A program made the position numbers and the translations under genes. A stretch of 29,184 bases of DNA from Ignisphaera sp. (GTDB lineage Archaea > Thermoproteota > Thermoprotei_A > Sulfolobales > Ignisphaeraceae): positions 23,068-52,251 of the forward strand of contig JAWAHS010000010.1 of the NCBI GenBank assembly GCA_038889075.1, written 5' to 3'. Below, one piece after another: positions 6,090 through 25,533 of the stretch. The notes beneath the pieces are model-generated. The model searched no databases and had not been told where the DNA came from. It was given only the letters and a program-made list of their open reading frames with translations. The first letter of the stretch is position 1, and each line of letters starts with the position of its first letter.

Positions 6090-6118
6090 CTCTCCGCAGC
6101 CTTTTCTATAGATTTAGA

Positions 6119-6126
6119 TATTTAAA
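6119..6126 (-). promoter_or_regulatory. archaeal TATA box for the aldo/keto reductase gene
   Basis: TTTAAATA on the minus strand about 30 bp upstream of the GTG start at 6089. Confidence 0.5.
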
Positions 6127-6471
6127 AACCTATTGGATGTGAAAAGCTATAGCATTATATTGAGAGAAATAGCTGTACTCTGCGGAGTATACATACACAG
6201 CTTACAGCCCTTTATAATCCAGTCTTCTCCCCACCCTATGTAGATACTATTGCTGTGAAGAAGTACGTGAATATAGAAAAATTTTTAAACTAGTCTAATT
6301 ATGTTTAGAGGATTTGGTGTTGATTATTGTATATAGTGTGATCGATAAACAACATATACATGTATATACAGAGAAGGATGTGAAACACATAGAGATTGAG
6401 ATAAGCTACTACACATACAGCTACACCACCCACTACCTCTGTAATGCATATGTATTCTAAGGTTGATATCT

Positions 6472-7776
6472 ATGCAGATACTGTACTGGAACTCTACTCT
6501 AGAGACTATACCACGTAGTGAATTAGAGAAGATGCAGCTAGCTAAACTAAAGGAACAGGTAAAAAGAGTTTACGAAAGGTGCTACTACTATCGTAGGAAG
6601 ATGAGAGAGGCTGGTATCGCTCCCGAAGATATTAGAAGCCTCAACGATACTAGAAAACTACCATTTACAACAAAAGACGATTTAAGAGATGCGTATCCCT
6701 ATGGTACCCTAGCTGTCGACCTCTCGGAAGTTGTTGAAGTTCACGGTAGTAGTGGTACGACAGGTAAACCAACGTTATCATTCTATACACAGATTGATAT
6801 AGAGAACTGGAGTGAGGTGATGGCTAGAAGCTTAACAGCTATAGGTATAACAAAAAGCGATATAGTGTTTATAGCATATAACTATCACATGTTTACAGGA
6901 GGTCTCGGTTTCCACTATGGAGCTCTGAAAATTGGTGCAACAGCTATACCAGCAGGTGTTGGCTATACACAGAGACAGATAATGATGATAAAAGATCTAG
7001 CTGTTACAATGCTTACCTCAGTTCCAAACTATGCTCTTAGGCTTGCTGAAGTAGCTTTTGAAATGGGTATAGATCCAGCTAAAGATACAAGAGTAAGAAA
7101 AGGTATGTTTGGTGCAGCACCTTGGAGTGAAGAAATGAGAAGTAGAATAGAGAAGATATGGGAGATGGCAGCATACGATATGTACGGTATGAGCGAACTT
7201 TACGGTCCTGGTGTTGCTTCTGAGTGTATACATAGGGAAGGTCTTCATGTTTGGGAGGATCACTATCTTGTTGAGGTTGTTGATCCTAGGACAGGCGATG
7301 TTTTGGAGCCTGAGGAGAGGGGTGAGCTAGTGGTGACAACTCTATCAAAGGATGCAATGCCTCTAATAAGATATAGAACAAGGGATATAACAAGAATACT
7401 GGATGTCAAACAGTGTCTATGTGGAAGAACACATAGAAAAATAGATAGAATACAGGGAAGAACAGACGATATGTTCATAGTAAACGGAGTAAACATATGG
7501 CCATCAGCAATAGAGGAGGTGCTTTTGAGAGAACCTCTTGTAGCTCCATACTACCAGATTGTTCTTGAGAGGGACGATGCACTTGATAGAATGATTGTTG
7601 TTGTTGAAGCTGTTAAACAGCTCAGTGATAGAGATAGAGAGATTTTGGAAAAGAGGATTCAGAGAGATTTAAAGGAGGCTATAATTGTTACACCTGTTGT
7701 TGAGGTTGTCGATCCGGGTACCCTGCCAAGATTTGATGGTAAGCCTAAAGTTGTTGTGGATAAGAGGTCTATATAG
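6472..7776 (+). CDS. paaK: phenylacetate--CoA ligase family (aryl-acetate CoA ligase), copy 1
   Basis: LPFTTKDDLR, P-loop HGSSGTTGKP, FTGGLGFHYG, YGMSELYGPG, PLIRYRTRD, GRTDDMFIVNGVN, LPRFDGKPK. ATG at 6472 follows an AGGTTGA RBS; alternative TTG 6463. Confidence 0.93.
   Translation: MQILYWNSTLETIPRSELEKMQLAKLKEQVKRVYERCYYYRRKMREAGIAPEDIRSLNDTRKLPFTTKDDLRDAYPYGTLAVDLSEVVEVHGSSGTTGKPTLSFYTQIDIENWSEVMARSLTAIGITKSDIVFIAYNYHMFTGGLGFHYGALKIGATAIPAGVGYTQRQIMMIKDLAVTMLTSVPNYALRLAEVAFEMGIDPAKDTRVRKGMFGAAPWSEEMRSRIEKIWEMAAYDMYGMSELYGPGVASECIHREGLHVWEDHYLVEVVDPRTGDVLEPEERGELVVTTLSKDAMPLIRYRTRDITRILDVKQCLCGRTHRKIDRIQGRTDDMFIVNGVNIWPSAIEEVLLREPLVAPYYQIVLERDDALDRMIVVVEAVKQLSDRDREILEKRIQRDLKEAIIVTPVVEVVDPGTLPRFDGKPKVVVDKRSI
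6587..6683. repeat. 97-bp inverted repeat (1 mismatch); partner 11364-11460
   Basis: Manual alignment to the reverse complement of 11364-11460; only an ATC/ATT codon differs. Confidence 0.9.
6783..6818. repeat. 36-bp perfect inverted repeat; partner 11229-11264
   Basis: CTATACACAGATTGATATAGAGAACTGGAGTGAGGT is present in both paaK copies. Confidence 0.88.
7025..7104. repeat. 80-bp perfect inverted repeat; partner 10943-11022
   Basis: Manual alignment; encodes NYALRLAEVAFEMGIDPAKDTRVRKG in both copies. Confidence 0.9.
7146..7168. repeat. 23-bp perfect inverted repeat; partner 10879-10901
   Basis: AATAGAGAAGATATGGGAGATGG is present in both copies. Confidence 0.8.
7237..7516. repeat. 280-bp perfect inverted repeat, left arm; partner 10531-10810
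   Basis: Manual base-by-base comparison found no mismatch, including at synonymous positions. Confidence 0.93.
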
Positions 7777-7779
7777 AGT

Positions 7780-9633
7780 ATGTCCAGGAGTAGACTGCTT
7801 GGTAAAGCTGGTGAAACAGCTTTTCTTCTTGGTAATGAAGCTATTGCCAGAGGAGCCATCGAATACGGTATAGGTGTTGCAGCTGCTTACCCTGGAACAC
7901 CATCAAGTGAGATTATCGGTACCCTTGCCCAAATTGCTAAGAATCTCGGCATACACGTTGAGTGGAGCGTCAATGAAAAAACAGCTTTTGAAGTAGCTTA
8001 TGCAGCTGCTATGAGTGGTGTTCCAAGCCTAACGGCTATGAAACACGTTGGACTTAATGTAGCTTCTGATCCTCTTATGTCCAGTGCATACACAGGTGTG
8101 AAAGCCGGCTTTGTTATTGTTACAGCTGACGATCCGTATATGCATAGTAGCCAGAATGAGCAGGATAACAGATGGTATGGTTTACACGCATACATACCTG
8201 TTCTAGAGCCTGCAGGTGTTCAGGAGGCTAAGGATCTTACATATATGGGGTTGGAGCTCTCAGAGAGATTGGAGCATCCATTTATCCTTAGATCGCTCAC
8301 TAGGGTAAGCCATGCTAGAGCACCTGTAAAGCTTGGTGAAATAGGATCTCCCAGATCATCAGGGGTATTTCTGCGAGAACCTGAGAGATGGGCTGTGATT
8401 CCAGCACATGCAAGGGTGATGAAGCGTAGAGTTCTTGAGAAGTGGATGAGGATTGGAGAGATGCTAGCAGATCTACCCTATAATAGGATTGAGGGTGATG
8501 GTTCCACGCTCATCGTTGCCTCAGGTATAGGGTATGCATACACTAGGGATGCGGTAAACATATTGGGTTGTAGAGCTAGGATTCTGAAAATATCTACACC
8601 CGTTCCCCTACCTAGGAAACTCGTTGAAAAGTCTTTAGATGGTGTTGAGAAGATACTCGTTATAGAGGAGACGGATCCTGTTGTAGAGATGCAACTCAAA
8701 TCCATACTAGTAGATATCGGTATGAATATCGAGGTACACGGTGGAGATCTCATTGGAAGATTTGGTGAACTTACAATAGACAGGGTTGCCCAAGCTATAG
8801 CAAAGGTATGTGGTATACCATGGCTGCCTCCACAGCCACTTAAACCAGAAATAGAGCCTCCACCGAGAAGTCCTATTCTATGCCCTGGCTGTCCCCACAG
8901 AGCTACATTCTATGCACTTAAGCTAGCAGCCAAAAAGGTTGGTGTAGACCCTATATACACAGGGGATATAGGATGCTACAGTCTTGGTATATCACCTCCA
9001 TTTAGAGTTCAAGATACTATAGTAGAGATGGGTGGAAGCATAGGGCTTGCAAATGGCTTTGCACATACAGTTAGAGATAGACCCGTTGTAGCTATTCTAG
9101 GAGATTCAACATTTTTCCACGCAGGCATACCACCTCTTGTAAATGCTGTATACAATAGAGCTCCTATGCTAATTCTAGTACTGGATAACGAGACGACCGG
9201 CATGACTGGTTTCCAACCACATCCAGGCACCGGGCTAACTGCAAAAGGTGAGCAAACGAGGAGAGTATTCATTGAGGATATCGCTAAAGCTGTAGGTGTA
9301 TCCCATGTAGAGGTCTTCGATCCTTATAGTGTCAGGGAAGCTGTTGAAACTATAGAGAGAGGGCTTAGGGTGGCCCTAGGTGGAGATGTTGCACTTCTTG
9401 TAGCTAGAAGAACGTGCTCTCTACTCGCAGTAAGGCTAGGTCTGCTTAGGGATGTATACTCTATAGATAGCAGCAGATGTATAGGATGTCTGCTATGTGT
9501 GAAAAATTTGATGTGCCCAGCTATAACCGTTGAGGATGGTAGACCACATATAGTTAAAGCTCTCTGCCGCGGATGTGGTGTGTGTACACAGATATGCCCT
9601 GTTAAAGCCATAGATAGAGGAGGTGCTGGATGA
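7780..9633 (+). CDS. iorA: indolepyruvate:ferredoxin oxidoreductase subunit alpha
   Basis: GNEAIARG, YPGTPSSEI, NEK, MKHVG, CPGCPHR, GDIGCY, TPP motif GDSTFFHAG...DN, and two C-terminal ferredoxin CxxCxxC...CP motifs. Confidence 0.95.
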   Translation: MSRSRLLGKAGETAFLLGNEAIARGAIEYGIGVAAAYPGTPSSEIIGTLAQIAKNLGIHVEWSVNEKTAFEVAYAAAMSGVPSLTAMKHVGLNVASDPLMSSAYTGVKAGFVIVTADDPYMHSSQNEQDNRWYGLHAYIPVLEPAGVQEAKDLTYMGLELSERLEHPFILRSLTRVSHARAPVKLGEIGSPRSSGVFLREPERWAVIPAHARVMKRRVLEKWMRIGEMLADLPYNRIEGDGSTLIVASGIGYAYTRDAVNILGCRARILKISTPVPLPRKLVEKSLDGVEKILVIEETDPVVEMQLKSILVDIGMNIEVHGGDLIGRFGELTIDRVAQAIAKVCGIPWLPPQPLKPEIEPPPRSPILCPGCPHRATFYALKLAAKKVGVDPIYTGDIGCYSLGISPPFRVQDTIVEMGGSIGLANGFAHTVRDRPVVAILGDSTFFHAGIPPLVNAVYNRAPMLILVLDNETTGMTGFQPHPGTGLTAKGEQTRRVFIEDIAKAVGVSHVEVFDPYSVREAVETIERGLRVALGGDVALLVARRTCSLLAVRLGLLRDVYSIDSSRCIGCLLCVKNLMCPAITVEDGRPHIVKALCRGCGVCTQICPVKAIDRGGAG

Positions 9634-10274
9634 AGATAGAGATAGCTGTATGCGGTGTCGGTGGCCAAGGAGTTGTGACTATGAGTGCTGTAATAGGGGA
9701 GATTTGTGTTAGACGTGGATTAAATGTAGTAGCTGCTGAAACCCATGGTATGGCACAGAGGATGGGATCCGTAGAGGTTTTTGTTAGAATAGGGGATGTA
9801 GAAGCACCGTTAATCTCTCCTGCATCAGCAGATTATGTCGTAGCTCTAGAGATGGTAGAGGCGCTAAGGGGTGTTAGATATCTTAAGAGATGCGGATGGA
9901 TTCTCGTTAGCAATATATACATACCTCCACCGGGTAGCGATAGAGTACCATCAAGGAGACAGGTAATTGAACTGCTATCAAAGCTGCCTATCAAAATGAT
10001 TGTTATAGACGTTGAGGAAATCATAAATAGGTTGGAAGATCCTAGAGTTGTTAATATGGCTATGCTTGGTGCTCTTCTATCTTTTAAAGACATATCGAAA
10101 ATACTACCAATAGATGTAGCTGAAGATGTTGTACAGGGGATGCTTGGTAGTGTAAATAGGGAAGCTCTTGCCATGGGATACAGGCAAGCTTTGGAAAAAA
10201 TGAATAACGGAAACGGTATATACGTATCGAACGTCTGTACCTACTCTACTGCTCCCTCTTCCAATCAAGGCTAG
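9630..10274 (+). CDS. iorB: indolepyruvate:ferredoxin oxidoreductase subunit beta
   Basis: GVGGQG, ETHGMAQRMGSV, NMAMLGAL. ATGA overlap with the iorA stop. Confidence 0.93.
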   Translation: MKIEIAVCGVGGQGVVTMSAVIGEICVRRGLNVVAAETHGMAQRMGSVEVFVRIGDVEAPLISPASADYVVALEMVEALRGVRYLKRCGWILVSNIYIPPPGSDRVPSRRQVIELLSKLPIKMIVIDVEEIINRLEDPRVVNMAMLGALLSFKDISKILPIDVAEDVVQGMLGSVNREALAMGYRQALEKMNNGNGIYVSNVCTYSTAPSSNQG

Positions 10275-11578
10275 CCATTAGATACTATGTACACTCTCTT
10301 AGCCTTACCTTCACTTCTCGGAAGCATACCTGGATCGACAACCTCAATCTCCGGTTCCACAACTATGGCTTCTCTTAACTCATACTGCAACCTTCTAGCT
10401 AGGAAATTCCTTTCCTCATCACTAAGTTTTCGAGATGATTCAACCTTGATTGAGAGTCTATCACCACCATCACTCTTCACAACCACAATCTGATACTCAT
10501 TACCAACAAGAGGATTGCTGTGGAGAACAACCTCTATTGCTGATGGCCATATGTTTACTCCGTTTACTATGAACATATCGTCTGTTCTTCCCTGTATTCT
10601 ATCTATTTTTCTATGTGTTCTTCCACATAGACACTGTTTGACATCCAGTATTCTTGTTATATCCCTTGTTCTATATCTTATTAGAGGCATTGCATCCTTT
10701 GATAGAGTTGTCACCACTAGCTCACCCCTCTCCTCAGGCTCCAAAACATCGCCTGTCCTAGGATCAACAACCTCAACAAGATAGTGATCCTCCCAAACAT
10801 GAAGACCTTCATGGTATTGGCAATCTATAGCGGTTCCAGGTCCATAGAGCTCGGCCATACCATAGATATCGAATGTCTCCATCTCCCATATCTTCTCTAT
10901 TTTTCTCCTAAGAGAATCGCTCCACATTTCAGCACCGAAAACACCTTTTCTTACTCTTGTATCTTTAGCTGGATCTATACCCATTTCAAAAGCTACTTCA
11001 GCAAGCCTAAGAGCATAGTTTGCTATTCCCGCAATCATCGTTGTCCCCAGCTTGACCATAACGTAGATCTGTCTTCGTGAAAATCCCGGTCCTGTTGGAA
11101 CTATGCATGCACCTATCTTTCTAGCTCCATAGAAGAATCCAAAGCCTCCTGTAAATAGGCTGAAACTCGGTGTTATCTGTAGTATGTCCTTTTCTGTGAG
11201 ACCTGCTGATGCCAGAGATCTGGCCATTACCTCACTCCAGTTCTCTATATCAATCTGTGTATAGTACATGAATACAGGTTCTCCTGTTGTTCCAGATGTT
11301 CCGTGAACTTCTACAACCTCTGTGAAATCAGTTGATAGGTATCCAAATGGCTGTGTCTCCCTCAAATCGTCTTTTGTTGTAAATGGTAGTTTTCTAGTAT
11401 CGTTGAGGCTTCTAATATCTTCGGGAGCAATACCAGCCTCTCTCATCTTCCTACGATAGTGCTCTACGCCATTATATAGCCTATAGATCTGCTCCCTCAG
11501 TCTCTGAAGCTGGATCTTCTCTATATCCTCCCTCCTTGCACACTCTATGCTGGGATTCCAGATCCAGCTATCAGGCAT
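10271..11578 (-). CDS. paaK: phenylacetate--CoA ligase family, copy 2
   Basis: LPFTTKDDLR, HGTSGTTGEP, FTGGFGFFYG, FGAEMW, YGMAELYGPG, LPRSEGKAKRV. ATG at 11578 follows an AGGTGA RBS; alternative GTG 11587. Confidence 0.93.
   Translation of the reverse strand: MPDSWIWNPSIECARREDIEKIQLQRLREQIYRLYNGVEHYRRKMREAGIAPEDIRSLNDTRKLPFTTKDDLRETQPFGYLSTDFTEVVEVHGTSGTTGEPVFMYYTQIDIENWSEVMARSLASAGLTEKDILQITPSFSLFTGGFGFFYGARKIGACIVPTGPGFSRRQIYVMVKLGTTMIAGIANYALRLAEVAFEMGIDPAKDTRVRKGVFGAEMWSDSLRRKIEKIWEMETFDIYGMAELYGPGTAIDCQYHEGLHVWEDHYLVEVVDPRTGDVLEPEERGELVVTTLSKDAMPLIRYRTRDITRILDVKQCLCGRTHRKIDRIQGRTDDMFIVNGVNIWPSAIEVVLHSNPLVGNEYQIVVVKSDGGDRLSIKVESSRKLSDEERNFLARRLQYELREAIVVEPEIEVVDPGMLPRSEGKAKRVYIVSNG
10531..10810. 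repeat. 280-bp perfect inverted repeat, right arm; partner 7237-7516
   Basis: Reverse complement of 7237-7516. Confidence 0.93.
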
Positions 11579-11623
11579 AGAAATCACCTATAGAGCAACG
11601 GAGTTCCATGGATTGGTTATCTC

Positions 11624-11629
11624 TATAAA
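11624..11629 (-). promoter_or_regulatory. candidate TATA box of paaK copy 2
   Basis: TTTATA on the minus strand about 35 bp upstream of the AGGTGA RBS. Confidence 0.4.
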
Positions 11630-12286
11630 CTATGGCATAGAGAATGGCATTTTCAGCTCTACATACATTTAGATAAACTAGCTCCATTGGCTCATCTAAA
11701 ACCACCTCAGACGAGTCTCTCTATAATATGGAACGGAATTTAAAGTTTTCGGACAAATACAGCAAAGCTATCTATATTACTGGTAGCCGACTTCCACTAT
11801 CGTCATAGGTTAGTAGAACGGTTGACTTGACGTAGTTATTGGCTCCTACACAGCTAGTCTAGTTGTGGAAAGACTATATTACTAGGGTTTCTACTATTTA
11901 TTTGAAAGCTTTCAAAATCTATTGCTTTGGACTGCTAGATAGAATACAGCTGATTACTGTAGTAGGTCTAGCAATAGTAGATGGAGTAGAGCTCTTCTAC
12001 TCTGTATAGACAGCCATGCATTCTCCATGGATGATACACTTCTTCAAAAGCTTCCACAGCCTAAGAGATTCTTAGTTTTTACAGGGTAGTAGATATAATC
12101 TCTAGAAATCTTTATCAACCCCAACTATCTTACCACATCTTTGAATACATGTATAATGGATATTGCGTTTTATAGAAGACTGTATTCCTCTACATAGAGA
12201 TGTATTTTCAGTTGCATGGATTTAGAAAATCCGTAGATCTCCTTAAATTTTTAAGGTATTCTATCTCTATCTTGTGTGGTGGTTTT

Positions 12287-18201: not shown

Positions 18202-19347
18202 ATGGGTATCTGTAGGCTTTGTGGTGCTAGGGGTGCTACTATTAGTAGCGTTATAGGTGTCTGTAGCAATTGTTTGAGGAATAGAAAGGAAGGGCTTGGT
18301 GTAGCTATGGAGGTGCATAGAAGATATAGAGCAGCTCTAGGGCTTCCTCCACAGCCTCCAGAGAGTGCTAATGGTATTAGGTGTACCCTATGTGTTAATG
18401 AGTGTAGCATAGGTGTTGGAGAAACCGGCTACTGTGGACTCTGGAGCAACTGTGGAGGTAGGCTCTGTTTTGTAGAGGGGCATAGTATTGGTATACTCTA
18501 TGCATATATAGATCCTCTACCAACAAACTGTGTAGCTACACCAGTATGTCCAGCTGCTACTGGATGTGGATATCCAAAATACAGTGTTTCCAGAGGCCCT
18601 GAATACGGATACTATAATCTTGCCGTATTTTTTGCCGGTTGCAATCTCAATTGCGTCTTCTGCCAGAATTGGGATCACAAAAACATTGTTGTTTCCCCAA
18701 GCCTTAGAGGAAGGTATACGGTTTTCGATGTAGAGCTTATCGATAGAGCTGTGAAAAATGGTAGAGTTACCTGCATATGCTATTTTGGTGGCGACCCAGG
18801 TCCGCATATGGTCTATGCCCTCAAGGTATCGAGAAAAATAGTTGAGGAATCTAAGAGGAGCAGTACTGTAAAGAGGGTTTGCTGGGAAACGAACGGTCTC
18901 GAGAACCCTGGTATAGTGAGGGAAATGGCTAGGGTAAGCCTTGAATCAGGAGGTATCGTAAAAATAGATTGGAAAGCCTATACCCCAGAAGTCTACCAAG
19001 CTCTAACAGGGGTTAATGGATATAGAGCTGTTAATAGGGTAAAGGAGAACATCGCCATAGTTGCCAGCATGTCTAGGGAGAGAATGGAGATTCCACTACT
19101 AACAGTCAGCATCCTCCTTGTACCCGGATACGTCGATGAGATAGAGCTCAGCGGTATGGCTGAGTACATAGCATCCGTAGATAGAGATATACCTGTAGTC
19201 CTTCTAGCATTCCATCCAGACCATCTTCTGAGAGATCTACCACCAACGAGTATAGACCATGCCAAGAAAGCTGTTGGGATATTCAAGGAATACGGTGTAA
19301 GGAAGGTGTTCCTTGGAAATGAGTGGCTTTTAGGTCCATACTACTAG
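18202..19347 (+). CDS. radical SAM protein, PflA/AmmeMemoRadiSam-related (COG1180-like)
   Basis: GCNLNCVFCQN (CxxxCxxC); extra N-terminal Cys motifs (CRLC, CSNC, CTLCVNEC, PTNC...CPA); YFGGDP, WETNG, LLVPGY, LAFHP. Confidence 0.9.
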   Translation: MGICRLCGARGATISSVIGVCSNCLRNRKEGLGVAMEVHRRYRAALGLPPQPPESANGIRCTLCVNECSIGVGETGYCGLWSNCGGRLCFVEGHSIGILYAYIDPLPTNCVATPVCPAATGCGYPKYSVSRGPEYGYYNLAVFFAGCNLNCVFCQNWDHKNIVVSPSLRGRYTVFDVELIDRAVKNGRVTCICYFGGDPGPHMVYALKVSRKIVEESKRSSTVKRVCWETNGLENPGIVREMARVSLESGGIVKIDWKAYTPEVYQALTGVNGYRAVNRVKENIAIVASMSRERMEIPLLTVSILLVPGYVDEIELSGMAEYIASVDRDIPVVLLAFHPDHLLRDLPPTSIDHAKKAVGIFKEYGVRKVFLGNEWLLGPYY

Positions 19348-19380
19348 CTGGGTAGAGATATACAGTTGGTGGCTATTTAC

Positions 19381-19851
19381 ATGGTTCTAGCAGTAGGAGG
19401 CGTCTACGTATTTATATTTAGAGTTGACAGAGATATTCGTACAACCATAGGCTCCCTGGGCAGTGCACACCTTGTACACGGAGTATATGGTTATGTAGGT
19501 TCTGCTAGAGGAGCTGGTGGAGTAAGGGCCAGGGTTCTACACCACATTAGGAAGGAAAAGAGGAGGGTGTGGTGGCATATAGACTACCTAACGACTCTCC
19601 CAGAAACCGTACCTATGTATGTAGTATATGCTAAGACTAGCTGCGATGTTGAATCCCTTCTAGCACATCGAATCGGATTATCACCGTGTTGGAGTGGATG
19701 CACTAGGGGATTCGGCTCATCAGATAAGGATAGCTATACACATCTATACCTCTGTAGCTGTAGCGAGGAGCTGTGTATCGATAGCATAGCTGAAGCATTT
19801 AGTGCTATTGGGCTGGAACCTATAGTTGAGAAAGTAGATGATATTATTTGA
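19381..19851 (+). CDS. GIY-YIG (Uri superfamily) nuclease, DUF123 family
   Basis: GVYVF...GVYGYVGSA, RVLHH, WHIDYL, ESLLA, GFGSSD, THLY. ATG at 19381 follows GGTGG; alternative TTG 19366. Confidence 0.88.
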   Translation: MVLAVGGVYVFIFRVDRDIRTTIGSLGSAHLVHGVYGYVGSARGAGGVRARVLHHIRKEKRRVWWHIDYLTTLPETVPMYVVYAKTSCDVESLLAHRIGLSPCWSGCTRGFGSSDKDSYTHLYLCSCSEELCIDSIAEAFSAIGLEPIVEKVDDII

Positions 19852-19922
19852 GTAGATGGATAGTGCCATCTAGTGAAAAGTAGATAACCTATTTCCAGCT
19901 AGAATAGAACTGGTGGTCTGGT

Positions 19923-20807
19923 TTGGAGAAGAGGCTCATTTCAAGGATAGCGGTATTTACACTGGTATCGTATACATCTGCATTTATCCTAGACTATACA
20001 GCACTTCTAGGACTGTTTACTACAGGATGGGGTGCCACGGCATGGGGATTTTTGAGAATGTGGAGCGTTGCACTATCTGCAGTATTGTGTCTGGCGATAT
20101 ATAGGGAGGGTGTAGCTATACATATTAAACACTTCTTAAAACCGTCTAAGAAAGCCCTTGTAGGTTACCTTACGGCACCGCTCATAGTCTATGGAGCTCT
20201 AGCAATCTATATACTGATTGCCCTACCTCTAAAGCTCTTCGACTTCGGTGTATATGTGAAGATTATTGCCGAAGCTCTTCGCACAACACTACCATCGCTC
20301 TCCGAGGATCAGCTTACAAATCTAGCTACTACAGCTGCATATAGCCAGATTCTAGCAGGATATGTAGCGGCTGTAACAATAAATGCATTTTTTGCCCTCG
20401 GTGAAGAGATTGGCTGGAGGGGATATCTATACCGTATTCTAGGTGCAAGGCCAACTCTATACAATATCATTGTAGTGGGTATTCTCTGGGGATTGTGGCA
20501 CTCACCTGCAATACTGCTCCTAGGATACAACTATTCAGTTAACAGATCCATGGGTGTACTTCTATTCACATTATACACCATCTTTCTATCCTATCCACAT
20601 CTATTGGTAACCACGGCTACCGATAGTATACTTCCCGCTACCACCCTCCACGGTGCTGTAAATGCACTATGGGGTTTAACAATAGTTGCTTCGAATCTAC
20701 CAATAGAGTTGAAGGAGACTCTACTTGGATTGGGAGTTCTAGGAATAGCTGCATGGTCTATCACGTGCATACTGCTATACATAGCGTACAGGTACAGACG
20801 TAAATGA
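19923..20807 (+). CDS. CPBP (CAAX/Abi) family intramembrane glutamic endopeptidase
   Basis: GEEIGWRGYL, LWGLWH, LHGAVN and multiple TM helices. Confidence 0.93.
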   Translation: MEKRLISRIAVFTLVSYTSAFILDYTALLGLFTTGWGATAWGFLRMWSVALSAVLCLAIYREGVAIHIKHFLKPSKKALVGYLTAPLIVYGALAIYILIALPLKLFDFGVYVKIIAEALRTTLPSLSEDQLTNLATTAAYSQILAGYVAAVTINAFFALGEEIGWRGYLYRILGARPTLYNIIVVGILWGLWHSPAILLLGYNYSVNRSMGVLLFTLYTIFLSYPHLLVTTATDSILPATTLHGAVNALWGLTIVASNLPIELKETLLGLGVLGIAAWSITCILLYIAYRYRRK

Positions 20808-20930
20808 AGATGCCATTCATCGTCAACACCACAGATATTTAGAGACAGCGGTATCTACCCTCTACATAGTAAAACGGTTAGACCTCCAGCTGTAGAGATT
20901 TTATTATCCAAATAGCTACATGGTACAGCG

Positions 20931-21998
20931 ATGGTGTTTAGAGTGGACTCTAGAACTTTGAGACGGGCTAGGCTATGGCTTCCAGAGGGAGACCGCGTTA
21001 GGTGTGATGTATGTGAGAGGAGGTGTGTGATTCAATCAGGCAGTAGAGGGATATGTGGAAACTACGTGAATATAGACAATGTGCTCTACCACTTTGGCTA
21101 TGGAAGAATAAGTGCCGTTGAGAGTAGACCTATTGAGATAAAGCCCCTCTTCCACTACTGGCCGAACAGTACAGCATTAACCTTCTCGACATGGGGTTGC
21201 AACTTCTACTGTCCATGGTGTCAAAATCACCACCTGAGCTTTAGAATGCCTAGGGAGGAGGATCCTACCACACCACCTGATGAGCTGCTAAGGAAAGCTA
21301 TTCTAAATGGTGATGAGGGGTTTAGTGCAAGCTTCAATGAACCAACTGTAAACTTCGACTATCTAGTCGATCTAGCTGAGCTTGCTGTAAAGGAAGGTCT
21401 ATACTTTATGATTGTAACCAATGGCTACCTCACTAAAAATGCTCTAGACCTACTCCTACAGCTCAATGTCGATGGATGGAGTATAGATATAAAGGGGTGT
21501 CCAAAGATGAGGAGAGCACTTGTCAATATAGATCACAGTATTGTATATAGAAATGCAAGATACATAGCCGATAGAAATGGTCATGTTGAAATGGTTTACC
21601 TTGTTGTACCAAATACAAACGATTTCGATGAATGTATAGAATGGATAATAGATAGCCACATATCCTACCTAGGCCACAGCACCCCACTACACATAAACAG
21701 ATACTACCCTGCACATAAATGGCATGAACCACCAACACCCATAGAGAGGTTGAGGTGGGTAGCTGAAAGAGCTAGGGGTGAGGGTATTGAGTATATCTAT
21801 ATAGGTAATGTGGGTGATCCACAGCTTGAATCAACAAAATGCCCAAGATGTGGTAAAATTCTGATCTATAGATACAGCTATAGAGTTTGGGAATTCAATC
21901 TAGATAGAGATGGCAATAGATACAGATGCCCAAGATGCAGCTACAGCATACCAATAAAAGGAAGATACATACCGTGGAAAAGCAATACATTGATCTAA
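20931..21998 (+). CDS. AmmeMemoRadiSam-type radical SAM enzyme
   Basis: VRCDVCERRC...GICG, PIEIKPLFHYWP, GCNFYCPWCQN, FNEP, VTNGY, IDIKG, YIYIGNV, TKCPRCG, RCPRC. Confidence 0.88.
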   Translation: MVFRVDSRTLRRARLWLPEGDRVRCDVCERRCVIQSGSRGICGNYVNIDNVLYHFGYGRISAVESRPIEIKPLFHYWPNSTALTFSTWGCNFYCPWCQNHHLSFRMPREEDPTTPPDELLRKAILNGDEGFSASFNEPTVNFDYLVDLAELAVKEGLYFMIVTNGYLTKNALDLLLQLNVDGWSIDIKGCPKMRRALVNIDHSIVYRNARYIADRNGHVEMVYLVVPNTNDFDECIEWIIDSHISYLGHSTPLHINRYYPAHKWHEPPTPIERLRWVAERARGEGIEYIYIGNVGDPQLESTKCPRCGKILIYRYSYRVWEFNLDRDGNRYRCPRCSYSIPIKGRYIPWKSNTLI

Positions 21999-22039
21999 AA
22001 CTCTACCACCATTATTCTCTCTGTTCTTTGTGGCCAGAT

Positions 22040-23128
22040 CTATAGCGGGCAGTAGCTGAGGCTATGGTAGTATGGACAGTGTCCACAGTTCGGCTCACCG
22101 CCTAGACAATCAGCAGTATTTTCTCTAGTTTTTCCACAGTATTCAACAAGGCTACAGGCTAAACAAGATGGAATCCTTTTAAAGTATAGCCTATAGAATA
22201 TCCTCGCATACCTATTCCTCCATATATCGATAAGCCTGTCTTTCCCAATATAGCCTAGCACAACTTTTTTTATGTACCTATTGATTCCCAGTATATTTGG
22301 GGTCCAGCTATATGCATAGTGAATACATGGGGTTACCGCACCATCGCATCTAATAAATAGGGCTCTTTTTGATGCAAAGGGACATGATGCTGTATACTGT
22401 GTTTGAGGAGCTGTAATTCTTAGGCTAAACTCCTTGAATTCTTCTAAAGCTTTTTTAAGCTGTGTAGATAGGTCTTCTATACATTTAGTTGAGCTCAGGC
22501 ATCCAACATCTTGATCGCTATAAGGTATCGCACTGGTAAATACAACCTCGTTTACACCTAGCTCTACAGCTAGTTTGAGGAAGTACTCTACGTCAACAAT
22601 ATTTAGAGATGTTACCGTAAACAATGTTTTTATAACAGGTTTTATCTGTCCCCGCACTTGCTTAATACTTACCAATTTAGAGATGCTCTGTATAATGCTA
22701 CTGAACATTGTTGGCTGGCGAACTATGTTATAGACTCTAGGTGTTGCAGCATCTAGAGATATGTAAATCTCATCAACATACTTGACCAGAGCATCGATAA
22801 GCTCATCAATTCTAGAACCATTTGTATTTATGGCAACCTCTAATCCTAGATCTCTACACATCTTAATCATATACTGTATCTCTGGATGGATAAGTGGTTC
22901 ACCCCAGCCTGAGAAGACAATCCTACCCACATTGTTTTCAATAGCTTCACTCAGTATGTTCTTAAAGAACTTCAAATCCATACTACATGGCTTAAGGTCT
23001 AGAGCAGCCTTTCTAAAACAGTGTATACAATTCATATTGCATAGTGTAGTAATCTCGACTACAAGTTCTCTGGGATGCGATTTCGGGCTCATCATTACGA
23101 TCCAGTCAGGTGTTGAGAACTCACGCAT
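22040..23128 (-). CDS. tungsten-cofactor oxidoreductase radical SAM maturase
   Basis: EITTLCNMNCIHC, FSGWGEP, NTNG, and a Cys-rich SPASM-like C-terminus (CPF, DGAVTPC, PSCLAC, DC...PNCGHC...CPL). Directly downstream of the AOR gene. Confidence 0.88.
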   Translation of the reverse strand: MREFSTPDWIVMMSPKSHPRELVVEITTLCNMNCIHCFRKAALDLKPCSMDLKFFKNILSEAIENNVGRIVFSGWGEPLIHPEIQYMIKMCRDLGLEVAINTNGSRIDELIDALVKYVDEIYISLDAATPRVYNIVRQPTMFSSIIQSISKLVSIKQVRGQIKPVIKTLFTVTSLNIVDVEYFLKLAVELGVNEVVFTSAIPYSDQDVGCLSSTKCIEDLSTQLKKALEEFKEFSLRITAPQTQYTASCPFASKRALFIRCDGAVTPCIHYAYSWTPNILGINRYIKKVVLGYIGKDRLIDIWRNRYARIFYRLYFKRIPSCLACSLVEYCGKTRENTADCLGGEPNCGHCPYYHSLSYCPL

Positions 23129-23242: not shown

Positions 23243-25138
23243 CTATTGTGGTAGTAGTCCTTCTTTCTCTAGTTTGTCACTCAACCACCTAAGATCCAGC
23301 TCCTCTAGTTTTGATCTTGTTGGTCTTCCTTTAACCCAACCTCTGATAGTGTAGTACTCGGGTAGCATTTCGCCAATCCTAGCTACATAGCCCTTCGCAG
23401 GCCCCTCAGGCATAGGTTCCTCCAGCAACCTCTTTGGCAACGTATCGTATGTCTCTCCATCGCCGAAGGCTAGGACGTTGAATACCCGTTCAGCGTTGTA
23501 TATTCTTTCGCCTACCTTCTTAAGCTCATCTACAGGCATATCCCACCCTGTTACAGTAGAGAGCTGTTCTGACAGCACATCGGCCCAGTATGCAAAGGTC
23601 ACAAACTTACACACTATTAGGCTATCTACTACCGCAAACACATCTTGGAACTCCTTAACCCATGCAGCCTTACCCCTAGTCTCAAATCTATTTAGCAACT
23701 GGGGTACACCTACAACCTCTGGAGCAATCATGTAAGCCCTCAGGTGACAGCCACCCCTGTTACTTGTAGCATAGGCTAGTCCGTGTCCCTGAACTCCACG
23801 TGGATCATAGGCTGGGAGCTCCTGATCTCTAACAACCATAGCGATCTCCGGCAGACCGTACTTTCGAGCAAGTCTAGCAGCACCTTCAGCAAGGTCGTCA
23901 CCTATACCAGAGCGGTAGGCAGTTCTCCACACAAGTTCTACCAGCGTTTCACCATTGCCCCACTCAACTCTTAGCCCTCTCAATCTTTCTGGTGGCACCC
24001 TGCCCTTCTCAACAAGCTCCATTAGAGTTGCTATGGTGGCCCCCATTGATATAGGGTCTATGCCGAGTTCATTACATAGAAAGTTTGCCTTGGCAACAGC
24101 AGCTAGATCGCCTGTACCTGTATCCGCTCCAAGAGCCCAGACAGTCTCGTATTCCGGCCCCCCACCTTCACCTGTAAATGGTGGCTTTGTAATTCTCGTA
24201 TATCTTGCACACTTCATCTCACAGCCCCAGCAAGCTTCTTCTTCAGCCATCTTCCAATCCATAATCTCATCCGCTATTCTCTCACCGCTGATCTTAACAG
24301 CCTCTGGAAATACCCCTGTTCTAAAGTTTCTTGTAGGAAAGATACCGTGTGCATTTATCACATTAACCAAGACGGCCGTGCCGTACTTTGGAAGAGACTG
24401 TGATGTAACAGGAGACTTCTTTATAATATCGAGAGACTTTGCTGCTACCTCTTCAAGTCTCTCCTCGTCAGCTACCTCCGGTCTCATATGCCCTCTAACA
24501 GCTATAGCCTTAAGCTTCTTAGATCCCCATACAGCTCCATGGCCACCTCTACCTGCAGCTCTATTCTTATCATTTAGTATAGCTGCGATTTTAACAAGGT
24601 TTTCACCGGCAGGGCCTATACACGCTACCTTGACCTCCCTAGCCTCATCAGGTCCAAGTACTGGTGAAAGCTCCTCTTTTATAGCATCTGTAGTACTATG
24701 GACATCTTTACCCCAGAGGTGTTTTGCATCCCTAAGCTCAGCCTTTCCATCATATATCCAGAGGTATACAGGCTTCTCAGAGGCACCCTCAATAACAATT
24801 ATATCAAAGCCTGCGAACTTTAGCTCTGGTCCAAACTTACCACCGCTATGGGAATCGTGGATCGTCCCAGTTAGTGGAGACTTTGTTACCGAACACCATC
24901 TACCAGATGAGGGAACCCCTGTAACACCTGTGAGAGGTCCTGTTGCCACAATAGCTTTATTGCTAGGGCTTAGAGGGTTGATTCTAGGATCCACCTCCTT
25001 AAGCATATAGTATACTCCTAGACCTCTACCACCAATCCATCTCCTTAAAACGTCCTCTGGTGGTAGATCCTCTACAAGTATCTTGCCATGGGTTAGATCA
25101 ACTCTTAGAACACGACCCATATACCCTCCTATAGGCAT
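23243..25138 (-). CDS. aor: tungsten-containing aldehyde:ferredoxin oxidoreductase
   Basis: GYMGRVLRVDL, IGGRGLG, KSPLTG, GPAGEN, AAGRGGHGAVWGSKKLKAI, CWGCEMKC, PEYET, YDPRG, RGGCH, IVCKF. ATG at 25138; alternative GTG 25147. Confidence 0.96.
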   Translation of the reverse strand: MPIGGYMGRVLRVDLTHGKILVEDLPPEDVLRRWIGGRGLGVYYMLKEVDPRINPLSPSNKAIVATGPLTGVTGVPSSGRWCSVTKSPLTGTIHDSHSGGKFGPELKFAGFDIIVIEGASEKPVYLWIYDGKAELRDAKHLWGKDVHSTTDAIKEELSPVLGPDEAREVKVACIGPAGENLVKIAAILNDKNRAAGRGGHGAVWGSKKLKAIAVRGHMRPEVADEERLEEVAAKSLDIIKKSPVTSQSLPKYGTAVLVNVINAHGIFPTRNFRTGVFPEAVKISGERIADEIMDWKMAEEEACWGCEMKCARYTRITKPPFTGEGGGPEYETVWALGADTGTGDLAAVAKANFLCNELGIDPISMGATIATLMELVEKGRVPPERLRGLRVEWGNGETLVELVWRTAYRSGIGDDLAEGAARLARKYGLPEIAMVVRDQELPAYDPRGVQGHGLAYATSNRGGCHLRAYMIAPEVVGVPQLLNRFETRGKAAWVKEFQDVFAVVDSLIVCKFVTFAYWADVLSEQLSTVTGWDMPVDELKKVGERIYNAERVFNVLAFGDGETYDTLPKRLLEEPMPEGPAKGYVARIGEMLPEYYTIRGWVKGRPTRSKLEELDLRWLSDKLEKEGLLPQ

Positions 25139-25176
25139 AGGGAGCACCCACTTGTAACAGAACGTGCCTCATGGAA

Positions 25177-25194
25177 TATATAAAGCTTTTCCTC
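25177..25194 (-). promoter_or_regulatory. BRE plus TATA box of aor
   Basis: Minus strand reads GAGGAAAAGC-TTTATATA, about 30-40 bp upstream of the start. Confidence 0.6.
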
Positions 25195-25242
25195 TGCTAC
25201 CTAACGGTAGCTAGTAGATATAGAGGGTACTACTACGATTTG

Positions 25243-25533
25243 TCATCCTCCGCCTGCAGGTGGGAAAATATCTATTGTAGTATCTCCAGAAATCTCTGTA
25301 TCAAAATTATTTAACAGCATAATGTTTATACCGTTAACAAGAATCATATAGCTGCGAGGGCTATTCATAACGGCATTTCTCAGATCCTCAAAGAACTCTA
25401 TAACATCTCTAACCCTAACCCTCTCTTTATCTACCACAAGCTCTCTTCTAGACCAGCCAAGCTTTCTAGCCAAATCCATATAAAGATTGATGTATATATG
25501 CACAGGCACACCTACATATCTCCTATAGATCAC
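25243..25533 (-). CDS. MoaD/ThiS/SAMP ubiquitin-like sulfur carrier
   Basis: ILVNG and C-terminal IDIFPPAGGG; start uncertain (possibly the internal GTG). Confidence 0.88.
   Translation of the reverse strand: MIYRRYVGVPVHIYINLYMDLARKLGWSRRELVVDKERVRVRDVIEFFEDLRNAVMNSPRSYMILVNGINIMLLNNFDTEISGDTTIDIFPPAGGG

Follow-up and report, generated by a model that had tools for sequence, protein, structure and literature searches.

A 29,184-nt stretch of DNA from an archaeon of the genus Ignisphaera (hereafter the window; 41.7% G+C, no N) carries two genes for PaaK-like aryl-CoA ligases, paaK1 and paaK2, which face each other across iorA and iorB, the genes for the alpha and beta subunits of indolepyruvate:ferredoxin oxidoreductase (IOR). 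The two ligase genes share a perfect 280-nt inverted repeat. We conclude that this identity is probably a recent gene conversion tract between old, diverged, inverted paralogs, and that occasional inversion of the DNA between them is likely but is best regarded as a by-product of their concerted evolution, not as the action of a dedicated switch.

The genes are ordered paaK1> iorA> iorB> <paaK2, with arrowheads giving the direction of transcription (coordinates of all features are listed in Table 1). Open reading frames (ORFs) and domain matches agree with this layout, which had been put forward in the initial annotation, and direct comparison bears out the repeat described there: arm A is the exact reverse complement of arm B, with 0 mismatches over 280 nt, and the match cannot be extended by even 1 base on either side. 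A repeat finder places this tract at the core of a longer arm pair of 354 nt (7237-7590 and 10457-10810; 92% identity). Repeats of at least 35 nt in the whole window number 0 in direct and 3 in inverted orientation, and all of them lie inside the two paaK genes. In the encoded proteins, the tract begins in the last part of the N-terminal domain and reaches about 10 residues into AMP-binding_C_2 (Pfam match from residue 342).

The similarity between paaK1 and paaK2 is very uneven along the genes. Nucleotide identity is 75% overall and is concentrated in six exact runs on one diagonal (31, 65, 36, 80, 23, and 280 nt), of which the 280-nt tract is the longest; 30-nt windows between the runs mostly show 50-75% identity. 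The edges of the 280-nt tract are sharp, with bordering windows at 57-80% identity. All 93 of its 93 codons match between the two genes, and this holds for every degenerate codon (89 of 89); elsewhere in the genes, 125 of the 188 degenerate codons that encode the same residue match. The proteins mirror this pattern, with identities of 62% in the N-terminal part (residues 1-258), 100% in the tract (259-351), and 47% in the C-terminal part (353-437; ORF numbering). The alignment columns (match or mismatch) across 7019-7739, which is ungapped and 81% identical, were shuffled 10,000 times; the longest run had a mean of 25 nt and a maximum of 75 nt, versus the 280 nt observed. Chance is thus ruled out as the cause of the identity, and because the degenerate codons are also all identical, neither chance nor protein constraint alone explains it. 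Exact patches with sharp borders in old paralogs are, on the pattern of these sequences, a signature of gene conversion.

To place the window's genes among their relatives, the 90 best protein matches to paaK1 (P0121 to P0210) were compared segment by segment with both window proteins. They yielded six paralog pairs, the window's own included, whose members we infer, from equal longest-contig values, to lie on the same contig or in the same genome. In five of the six pairs, the tract is 96-100% identical (e.g., 96% for P0132/P0173 and 97% for P0125/P0181), while block II (residues 76-188) reaches only 45-60%. Between lineages, orthologous tracts show 73-88% identity (median, 81-83), and this segment is the best-conserved part of the protein in such comparisons. 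The limits of the homogenized stretch vary from lineage to lineage (93, 89, 80, 162, and 239 residues), and this variation indicates that the conversion events were independent.

Trees of individual segments (41 rows; a quick method applied to short segments) separate the flanks of the protein from its center. In the block II tree, 17 rows form a K1 clade (support, 93) and 20 rows form a K2 clade (support, 100), and the block IV tree (residues 352-437) likewise contains paralog clades of 12 rows (support, 92) and 12 rows (support, 95). The tract tree instead groups sequences by lineage: the two window proteins fall together, as do P0130 and P0157 and also P0135 and P0151, P0132 joins P0173, and P0144 falls with P0170. 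Because the flanks follow the paralog and the tract follows the lineage, the duplication must be old and the central segment must have been homogenized repeatedly in separate lineages. Judged from these proteins, concerted evolution of the central segment is recurrent.

Among close relatives, the proteins are cleanly assembled from blocks of one or the other paralog type, with breakpoints near residues 43-75, 189-214, and 259-351, at the shared tracts. Shorter runs within the window's own gene pair fall at the same places: the second tract, at 6587-6683, coincides with the block I/II breakpoint, and the 80-nt run coincides with the block II/III breakpoint. With the two paralog types written as A and b along the protein, group 1 of the relatives (parents P0126, AAAA, and P0158, bbbb) includes bAAA (P0128 and P0129), AAbA (P0131), AAbb (P0139), AbbA (P0140), and bbbA (P0149). 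Group 2 contributes AAAb (P0133). Group 3 contrasts P0130 (AAbA), a source-deposited protein encoded on a 139-kb contig, with P0124 (AAAA). Patchwise forms, AAbA among them, resemble products of nonreciprocal conversion.

A second class of mosaic joins the N-terminal part of one paralog to the C-terminal part of the other. In the trees, blocks II and IV are discordant in 4 of 38 ingroup rows, two of them N1-C2 (P0133 and P0139) and two N2-C1 (P0140 and P0149); three further rows (P0134, P0136, and P0144) show a deeper discordance. The N-terminal part of P0149 is 100% identical to that of P0172, an N2-C2 protein in this close-relative group, yet its C-terminal part is of type C1. In P0133, P0140, and P0149, the foreign C-terminal part runs to the last residue; in the pair P0135/P0151, the homogenized stretch stops about 10 residues before the stop codon, and the tails are paralog specific. 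Homology does not extend past the ligase stop codons, since iorA starts beyond one of them and iorB ends beyond the other. A conversion event would be expected to end where the two genes are still homologous, and a complete swap of the C-terminal part would therefore be the product of a crossover in the tract, i.e., an inversion.

These observations can be accommodated in a single mechanism. The general homologous-recombination machinery would repeatedly homogenize the most conserved central part of paaK1 and paaK2, with double-strand-break repair copying sequence from one gene into the other, most successfully where their similarity is already highest. The N-terminal blocks and the C-terminal domain would meanwhile stay paralog specific. 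As the copies are inverted, the share of exchanges resolved as crossovers would flip the 3014 nt between the arms to give N1-C2> <iorB <iorA <N2-C1, in which the C-terminal domains are exchanged from about residue 352 to the end (almost the whole of AMP-binding_C_2) and iorAB follows the N-terminal part of paaK2 and its upstream region. Conversion as the mechanism, the actual occurrence of inversions, and the activation of different arylacetates for IOR by the two ligases are what we infer from this pattern.

The closest precedent is the tufA/tufB pair of Salmonella enterica, in which inversely oriented paralogs exchange sequence by homologous recombination and are more alike within a genome than orthologues are between lineages. 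The paaK pair resembles it in several respects: the homologous genes are inverted on one replicon, the shared tracts have sharp borders and include synonymous positions, and, at the protein level, the tract is more alike within a genome than between lineages. Inversion is reported to accompany up to ~50% of conversion events between tufA and tufB (PMC5485169, PMC6735719), and by this analogy, flips of the segment between the paaK arms are likely to occur. The two cases also differ. Along their whole length, the tuf genes show almost no divergence (12 differences in 1185 nt), and 761-762 kb separates them, while the paaK pair is only 62% and 47% identical in protein on the two sides of the core and lies 3 kb apart. 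A crossover between the paaK genes would create domain-swapped chimeras and rewire an operon; inversion has been demonstrated for tuf only, and the host here is an archaeon.

Several points weigh against conversion as the origin of the tract or limit its reach. In the sixth pair, P0143/P0160, the tract is 82% identical, and its longest run is 18 residues. Homogenization in the relatives is seen at the protein level, and the placement of each pair on one contig is itself deduced. The window appears to come from a metagenome-assembled genome, in which paralog stretches merged by the assembler could raise an identity of 97-99% to 100%. The N/C-swapped proteins may reflect inversion, but they also fit short-read misorientation of a repeat-bounded segment or copy switching at a shared tract. 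Among the 90 best matches, there is no chimera from the window's own species and no sign of an inversion polymorphism: the window's tract is shared only by P0121 (434 amino acids [aa], 100% identical to paaK1) and by P0150 and P0155 (99-100% identical to paaK2), all of which are N1-C1 or N2-C2. Finally, many lineages retain the tract at one position, and this could also reflect selection, which would favor a switch.

Such a switch was the central proposal of the initial annotation, and its geometry survives scrutiny. A crossover in the tract would flip the roughly 3 kb that it named, leave both frames open, and swap the C-terminal parts; iorAB would come to lie behind a different upstream region, given that the upstream 250 nt of one ligase gene and of the other share no homology (51% in a global alignment); and no recombinase, integrase, or transposase domain is found in the 28 ORFs scanned across the window, in line with its remark that no recombinase is visible there, though a recombinase may be encoded elsewhere in the genome. 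What fares less well is the switch itself, a dedicated recombinase-free invertible cassette in which selection keeps the tract as a crossover site, populations contain both orientations, and each flip picks the ligase N-terminal module and the promoter for iorAB. We consider this unlikely. Both reciprocal chimera types do occur among the relatives, P0149 included, the tract ends near the start of AMP-binding_C_2 so that chimeras would swap whole C-terminal domains, the paaK upstream regions are unrelated, and the tract is kept at the same position in five of the six lineage pairs. Inversions at the pneumococcal spnIII locus, on coding repeats of 333 bp and 85 bp, are moreover reported to go on without the locus recombinase or RecA (PMC6620402).

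Against this, nothing shows coexisting orientations, frequent flipping, a benefit, or a phenotype, and the window's species has no chimera among the matches. Each ligase would keep its own upstream region in either state, and a change in the driver of iorAB alone is a weak rationale for a stochastic metabolic switch. Conversion patches without any swap (P0128, P0130, and P0131) point to general recombination rather than to a specialized site, and conservation of this protein segment can by itself explain why conversion succeeds there. Recurrent gene conversion, with its six exact runs and its five homogenized pairs, explains the tract better. The more specific proposal that a crossover tract has been selected at the domain junction, with homologous recombination flipping iorAB in nature, shuffling N-terminal modules, C-terminal domains, and promoters, and maintaining both orientations, is in our judgment improbable.

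We give little credence to an assembly artifact, in which copies that are merely similar were merged into one consensus and the relatives' chimeras are misjoins at the shared stretch. The source name of P0121 (phenylacetate--CoA ligase [Ignisphaera sp.], from a metagenome-assembled genome) does suggest that the window was assembled from a metagenome, the 280-nt repeat is longer than usual k-mer sizes, and every mosaic breakpoint in the relatives lies at a shared tract, where an assembler could switch copies. However, assemblies of other pairs retain their differences (P0132/P0173, P0125/P0181, and P0143/P0160), identical tracts of varying extent occur in pairs from several sources, the window's tract has sharp edges beside much less similar sequence, and double-switch mosaics (AAbA and AbbA) would need two errors in one contig. 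In addition, an IorA protein 100% identical to that of the window (P0001, 12 member sequences) is encoded on a contig of at most 3073 nt, which corresponds to 3014 nt plus ~30 nt on each side, flanks that we take to reflect a k-mer size of 31. This size fits a break at the inner edges of the repeat, and the repeat therefore seems to behave as a true repeat in an independent assembly.

The IorA proteins of other relatives are also encoded on contigs of ~3.0-3.1 kb (P0006, 3084 nt; P0007, 3113 nt; P0010, 3038 nt; P0017, 3073 nt), a hint that an inverted repeat on the flanks of iorAB interrupts the assemblies of other lineages as well.

An origin without continuing exchange, whether through strong purifying selection on a conserved catalytic core or through very recent duplication of part of the gene, is highly improbable: the tract is indeed the best-conserved part between lineages and presumably covers core motifs of the enzyme family, but protein constraint cannot keep every degenerate codon identical, and it does not account for a tract that differs this much between lineages while being nearly uniform within five of six genome pairs. 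A single recent duplication was also rejected, since it cannot yield six separate exact runs or tract limits that vary by lineage.

Concerted evolution and inversion between inverted paralogs are known processes, and what is new is this example. It is unusual in that homogenization is confined to the segment at the domain junction, recurs across lineages, and brackets an archaeal metabolic operon. A full-text search of the available literature, supplements aside, turned up no account of inverted paaK genes flanking iorAB and none of gene conversion in Ignisphaera. Phase-variable restriction-modification loci of type I (hsdS; pneumococcal spnIII or ivr) are reported to share the use of coding-sequence inverted repeats at which inversion swaps protein modules between the expressed gene and its partner. 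They differ in carrying a dedicated tyrosine recombinase and partial genes that are silent, and in switching at rates measured as high, while here both genes are complete and the window holds no recombinase gene. More generally, the site-specific recombinase gene that lies in or beside programmed invertase switches (invertons, shufflons, and hsdS invertons) has no counterpart within the window.

The arrangement itself also stands apart from paaK-iorAB clusters elsewhere. We surveyed 80 distant loci (IorA identity of at most 55%, no Ignisphaera), some of them on short contigs from which flanks may be missing. A PaaK-like gene adjoins iorA in 27 of these loci and is co-oriented with it in all but one of them (26 of 27); 0 of the 80 loci show iorAB between two inverted paaK genes. 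The sole convergent paaK of the survey, a single gene after iorB, is in a locus of Methanobacteriaceae (L054), and in two loci (L065 and L077) iorAB is flanked by two paaK genes, which are co-oriented.

Both window ligases clearly belong to the PaaK-like subfamily, as judged by homology. Each contains the Pfam domains AMP-binding and AMP-binding_C_2, and each matches TIGR02155 PaaK (paaK1, E = 7.9e-149 and 495.8 bits; paaK2, E = 2.7e-127 and 424.8 bits) without reaching the curated cut-off of 646.3. We accordingly use the broad name PaaK-like aryl-CoA ligase for both, with the substrate unproven. The closest solved structure to the window ligase is that of Bacteroides PaaK (PDB 4r1l, E = 1.9e-123), and the Burkholderia PaaK structures also match (2y27, E = 2.8e-119; 2y4o, E = 7.2e-113). 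IorA exceeds the cut-off of TIGR03336 IOR_alpha (724.5 bits versus 650.9), carries the Pfam domains POR_N, TPP_enzyme_C, and Fer4, and has its best named relatives in Ignisphaera, at up to 77% identity. IorB matches IOR beta models best (E = 5.5e-38, all matches being under curated cut-offs) and Pfam POR with 107.4 bits. An alpha subunit above its cut-off and an adjacent beta gene assign the two genes, by sequence, to iorA and iorB. The genes are tightly packed, with 3 nt between the paaK1 stop codon and iorA and an overlap of 4 nt between iorA and iorB.

AMP-forming ligases activate free acids, and salvage of arylacetates into aromatic amino acids by a ligase and IOR has reportedly been found in Methanococcus maripaludis. 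The ligase-IOR cluster in the window most plausibly serves the same salvage, and a pair of ligases that differ in their N-terminal parts would broaden the range of acids accepted. IOR interconverts arylpyruvates and arylacetyl-CoA, as described for the oxidative direction (PMC5817080). In this ligase family, the acid and ATP are reported to bind the N-terminal domain, and the C-terminal domain to rotate between the two half-reactions (PMC8388817). The segments that stay different between paaK1 and paaK2 would thus be those expected to carry specificity. The PaaK1 and PaaK2 enzymes of Burkholderia cenocepacia are reported to be 69% identical and to differ in substrate range through the aryl pocket (PMC4498308). 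They serve aerobic phenylacetate catabolism, and the accessible portion of that report describes neither an inverted iorAB arrangement nor a conversion tract.

If recurrent conversion is the correct reading, the locus would be a compact case of partial concerted evolution from a hyperthermophilic archaeon, in which the specificity-bearing and C-terminal parts remain distinct and recombinant alleles break at shared tracts. It would also be a place at which homologous recombination, the lengths of conversion tracts, and inversion rates could be measured in natural archaeal populations. The result would carry greater weight if both orientations coexist and change the arylacetate ligase coupled to IOR, and if the selected flip is real after all, it would be a recombinase-free invertible metabolic operon built of coding sequence only, in an archaeon. 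For metagenome assemblies the locus is a warning, as neither the orientation of iorAB nor the combination of ligase N- and C-terminal parts can be trusted from short reads.

Table 1. Features of the paaK-iorAB locus, in window coordinates
Feature	Coordinates	Strand	Remarks
paaK1, PaaK-like aryl-CoA ligase	6472-7776	+	434 aa from ATG; ORF opens at TTG 6463
iorA, indolepyruvate:ferredoxin oxidoreductase alpha subunit	7780-9633	+	TIGR03336 IOR_alpha
iorB, IOR beta subunit	9630-10274	+	IOR beta models, Pfam POR
paaK2, second PaaK-like aryl-CoA ligase	10271-11578	-	435 aa from ATG; ORF opens at GTG 11587; convergent with iorB
Arm A of the exact 280-nt inverted repeat	7237-7516	+	paaK1 residues 259-351 (ORF numbering)
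Arm B of the exact 280-nt inverted repeat	10531-10810	-	In paaK2
Segment expected to flip after a crossover in the tract, 3014 nt	7517-10530	.	C-terminal part of paaK1, iorA, iorB, C-terminal part of paaK2; from geometry
Second putative conversion tract	6587-6683	+	Exact runs of 31 and 65 nt with one mismatch between them; pairs with 11364-11460
Exact 36-nt run	6783-6818	+	Pairs with 11229-11264
Exact 80-nt run	7025-7104	+	Pairs with 10943-11022
Exact 23-nt run	7146-7168	+	Pairs with 10879-10901
paaK1 upstream, presumed promoter region	6090-6471	+	GGTTGAT just before ATG
paaK2 upstream, presumed promoter region, 620 nt	11579-12199	-	GGTGAT just before ATG

Because the upstream regions of the two ligase genes are unrelated, the duplication excludes the promoters. 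GGTGAT-like motifs stand a few bases before both ligase ATGs (6454-6471 and 11579-11596), and the similarity of the paralogs begins only there. Upstream of paaK2 lie 620 nt that contain no ORF of at least 50 aa, a long interval for intergenic DNA in an archaeon. Rfam and tRNA scans of the window, including this region and the 380-nt region upstream of paaK1, gave no matches. At the other end of paaK2, its stop codon (-) overlaps that of iorB (+) at 10271-10274, leaving no terminator spacer between the convergent units; transcription of iorAB probably continues antisense into paaK2, and that of paaK2 into iorB.

In the window, aldo-keto reductase and DUF72 genes flank the locus. Elsewhere, a gene at 23243-25533 (-) encodes a tungsten-type aldehyde:ferredoxin oxidoreductase (AFOR_N and AFOR_C, 634 aa), adjoins a small ThiS/MoaD-like gene, and may share aromatic or aldehyde metabolism with IOR. 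The region 18202-23128 contains three radical SAM genes (18202-19347, 20931-21998, and 22040-23128, with a SPASM domain), between which lie a DUF123 gene and a CAAX-protease-like gene; this group might be a peptide-maturation cluster.

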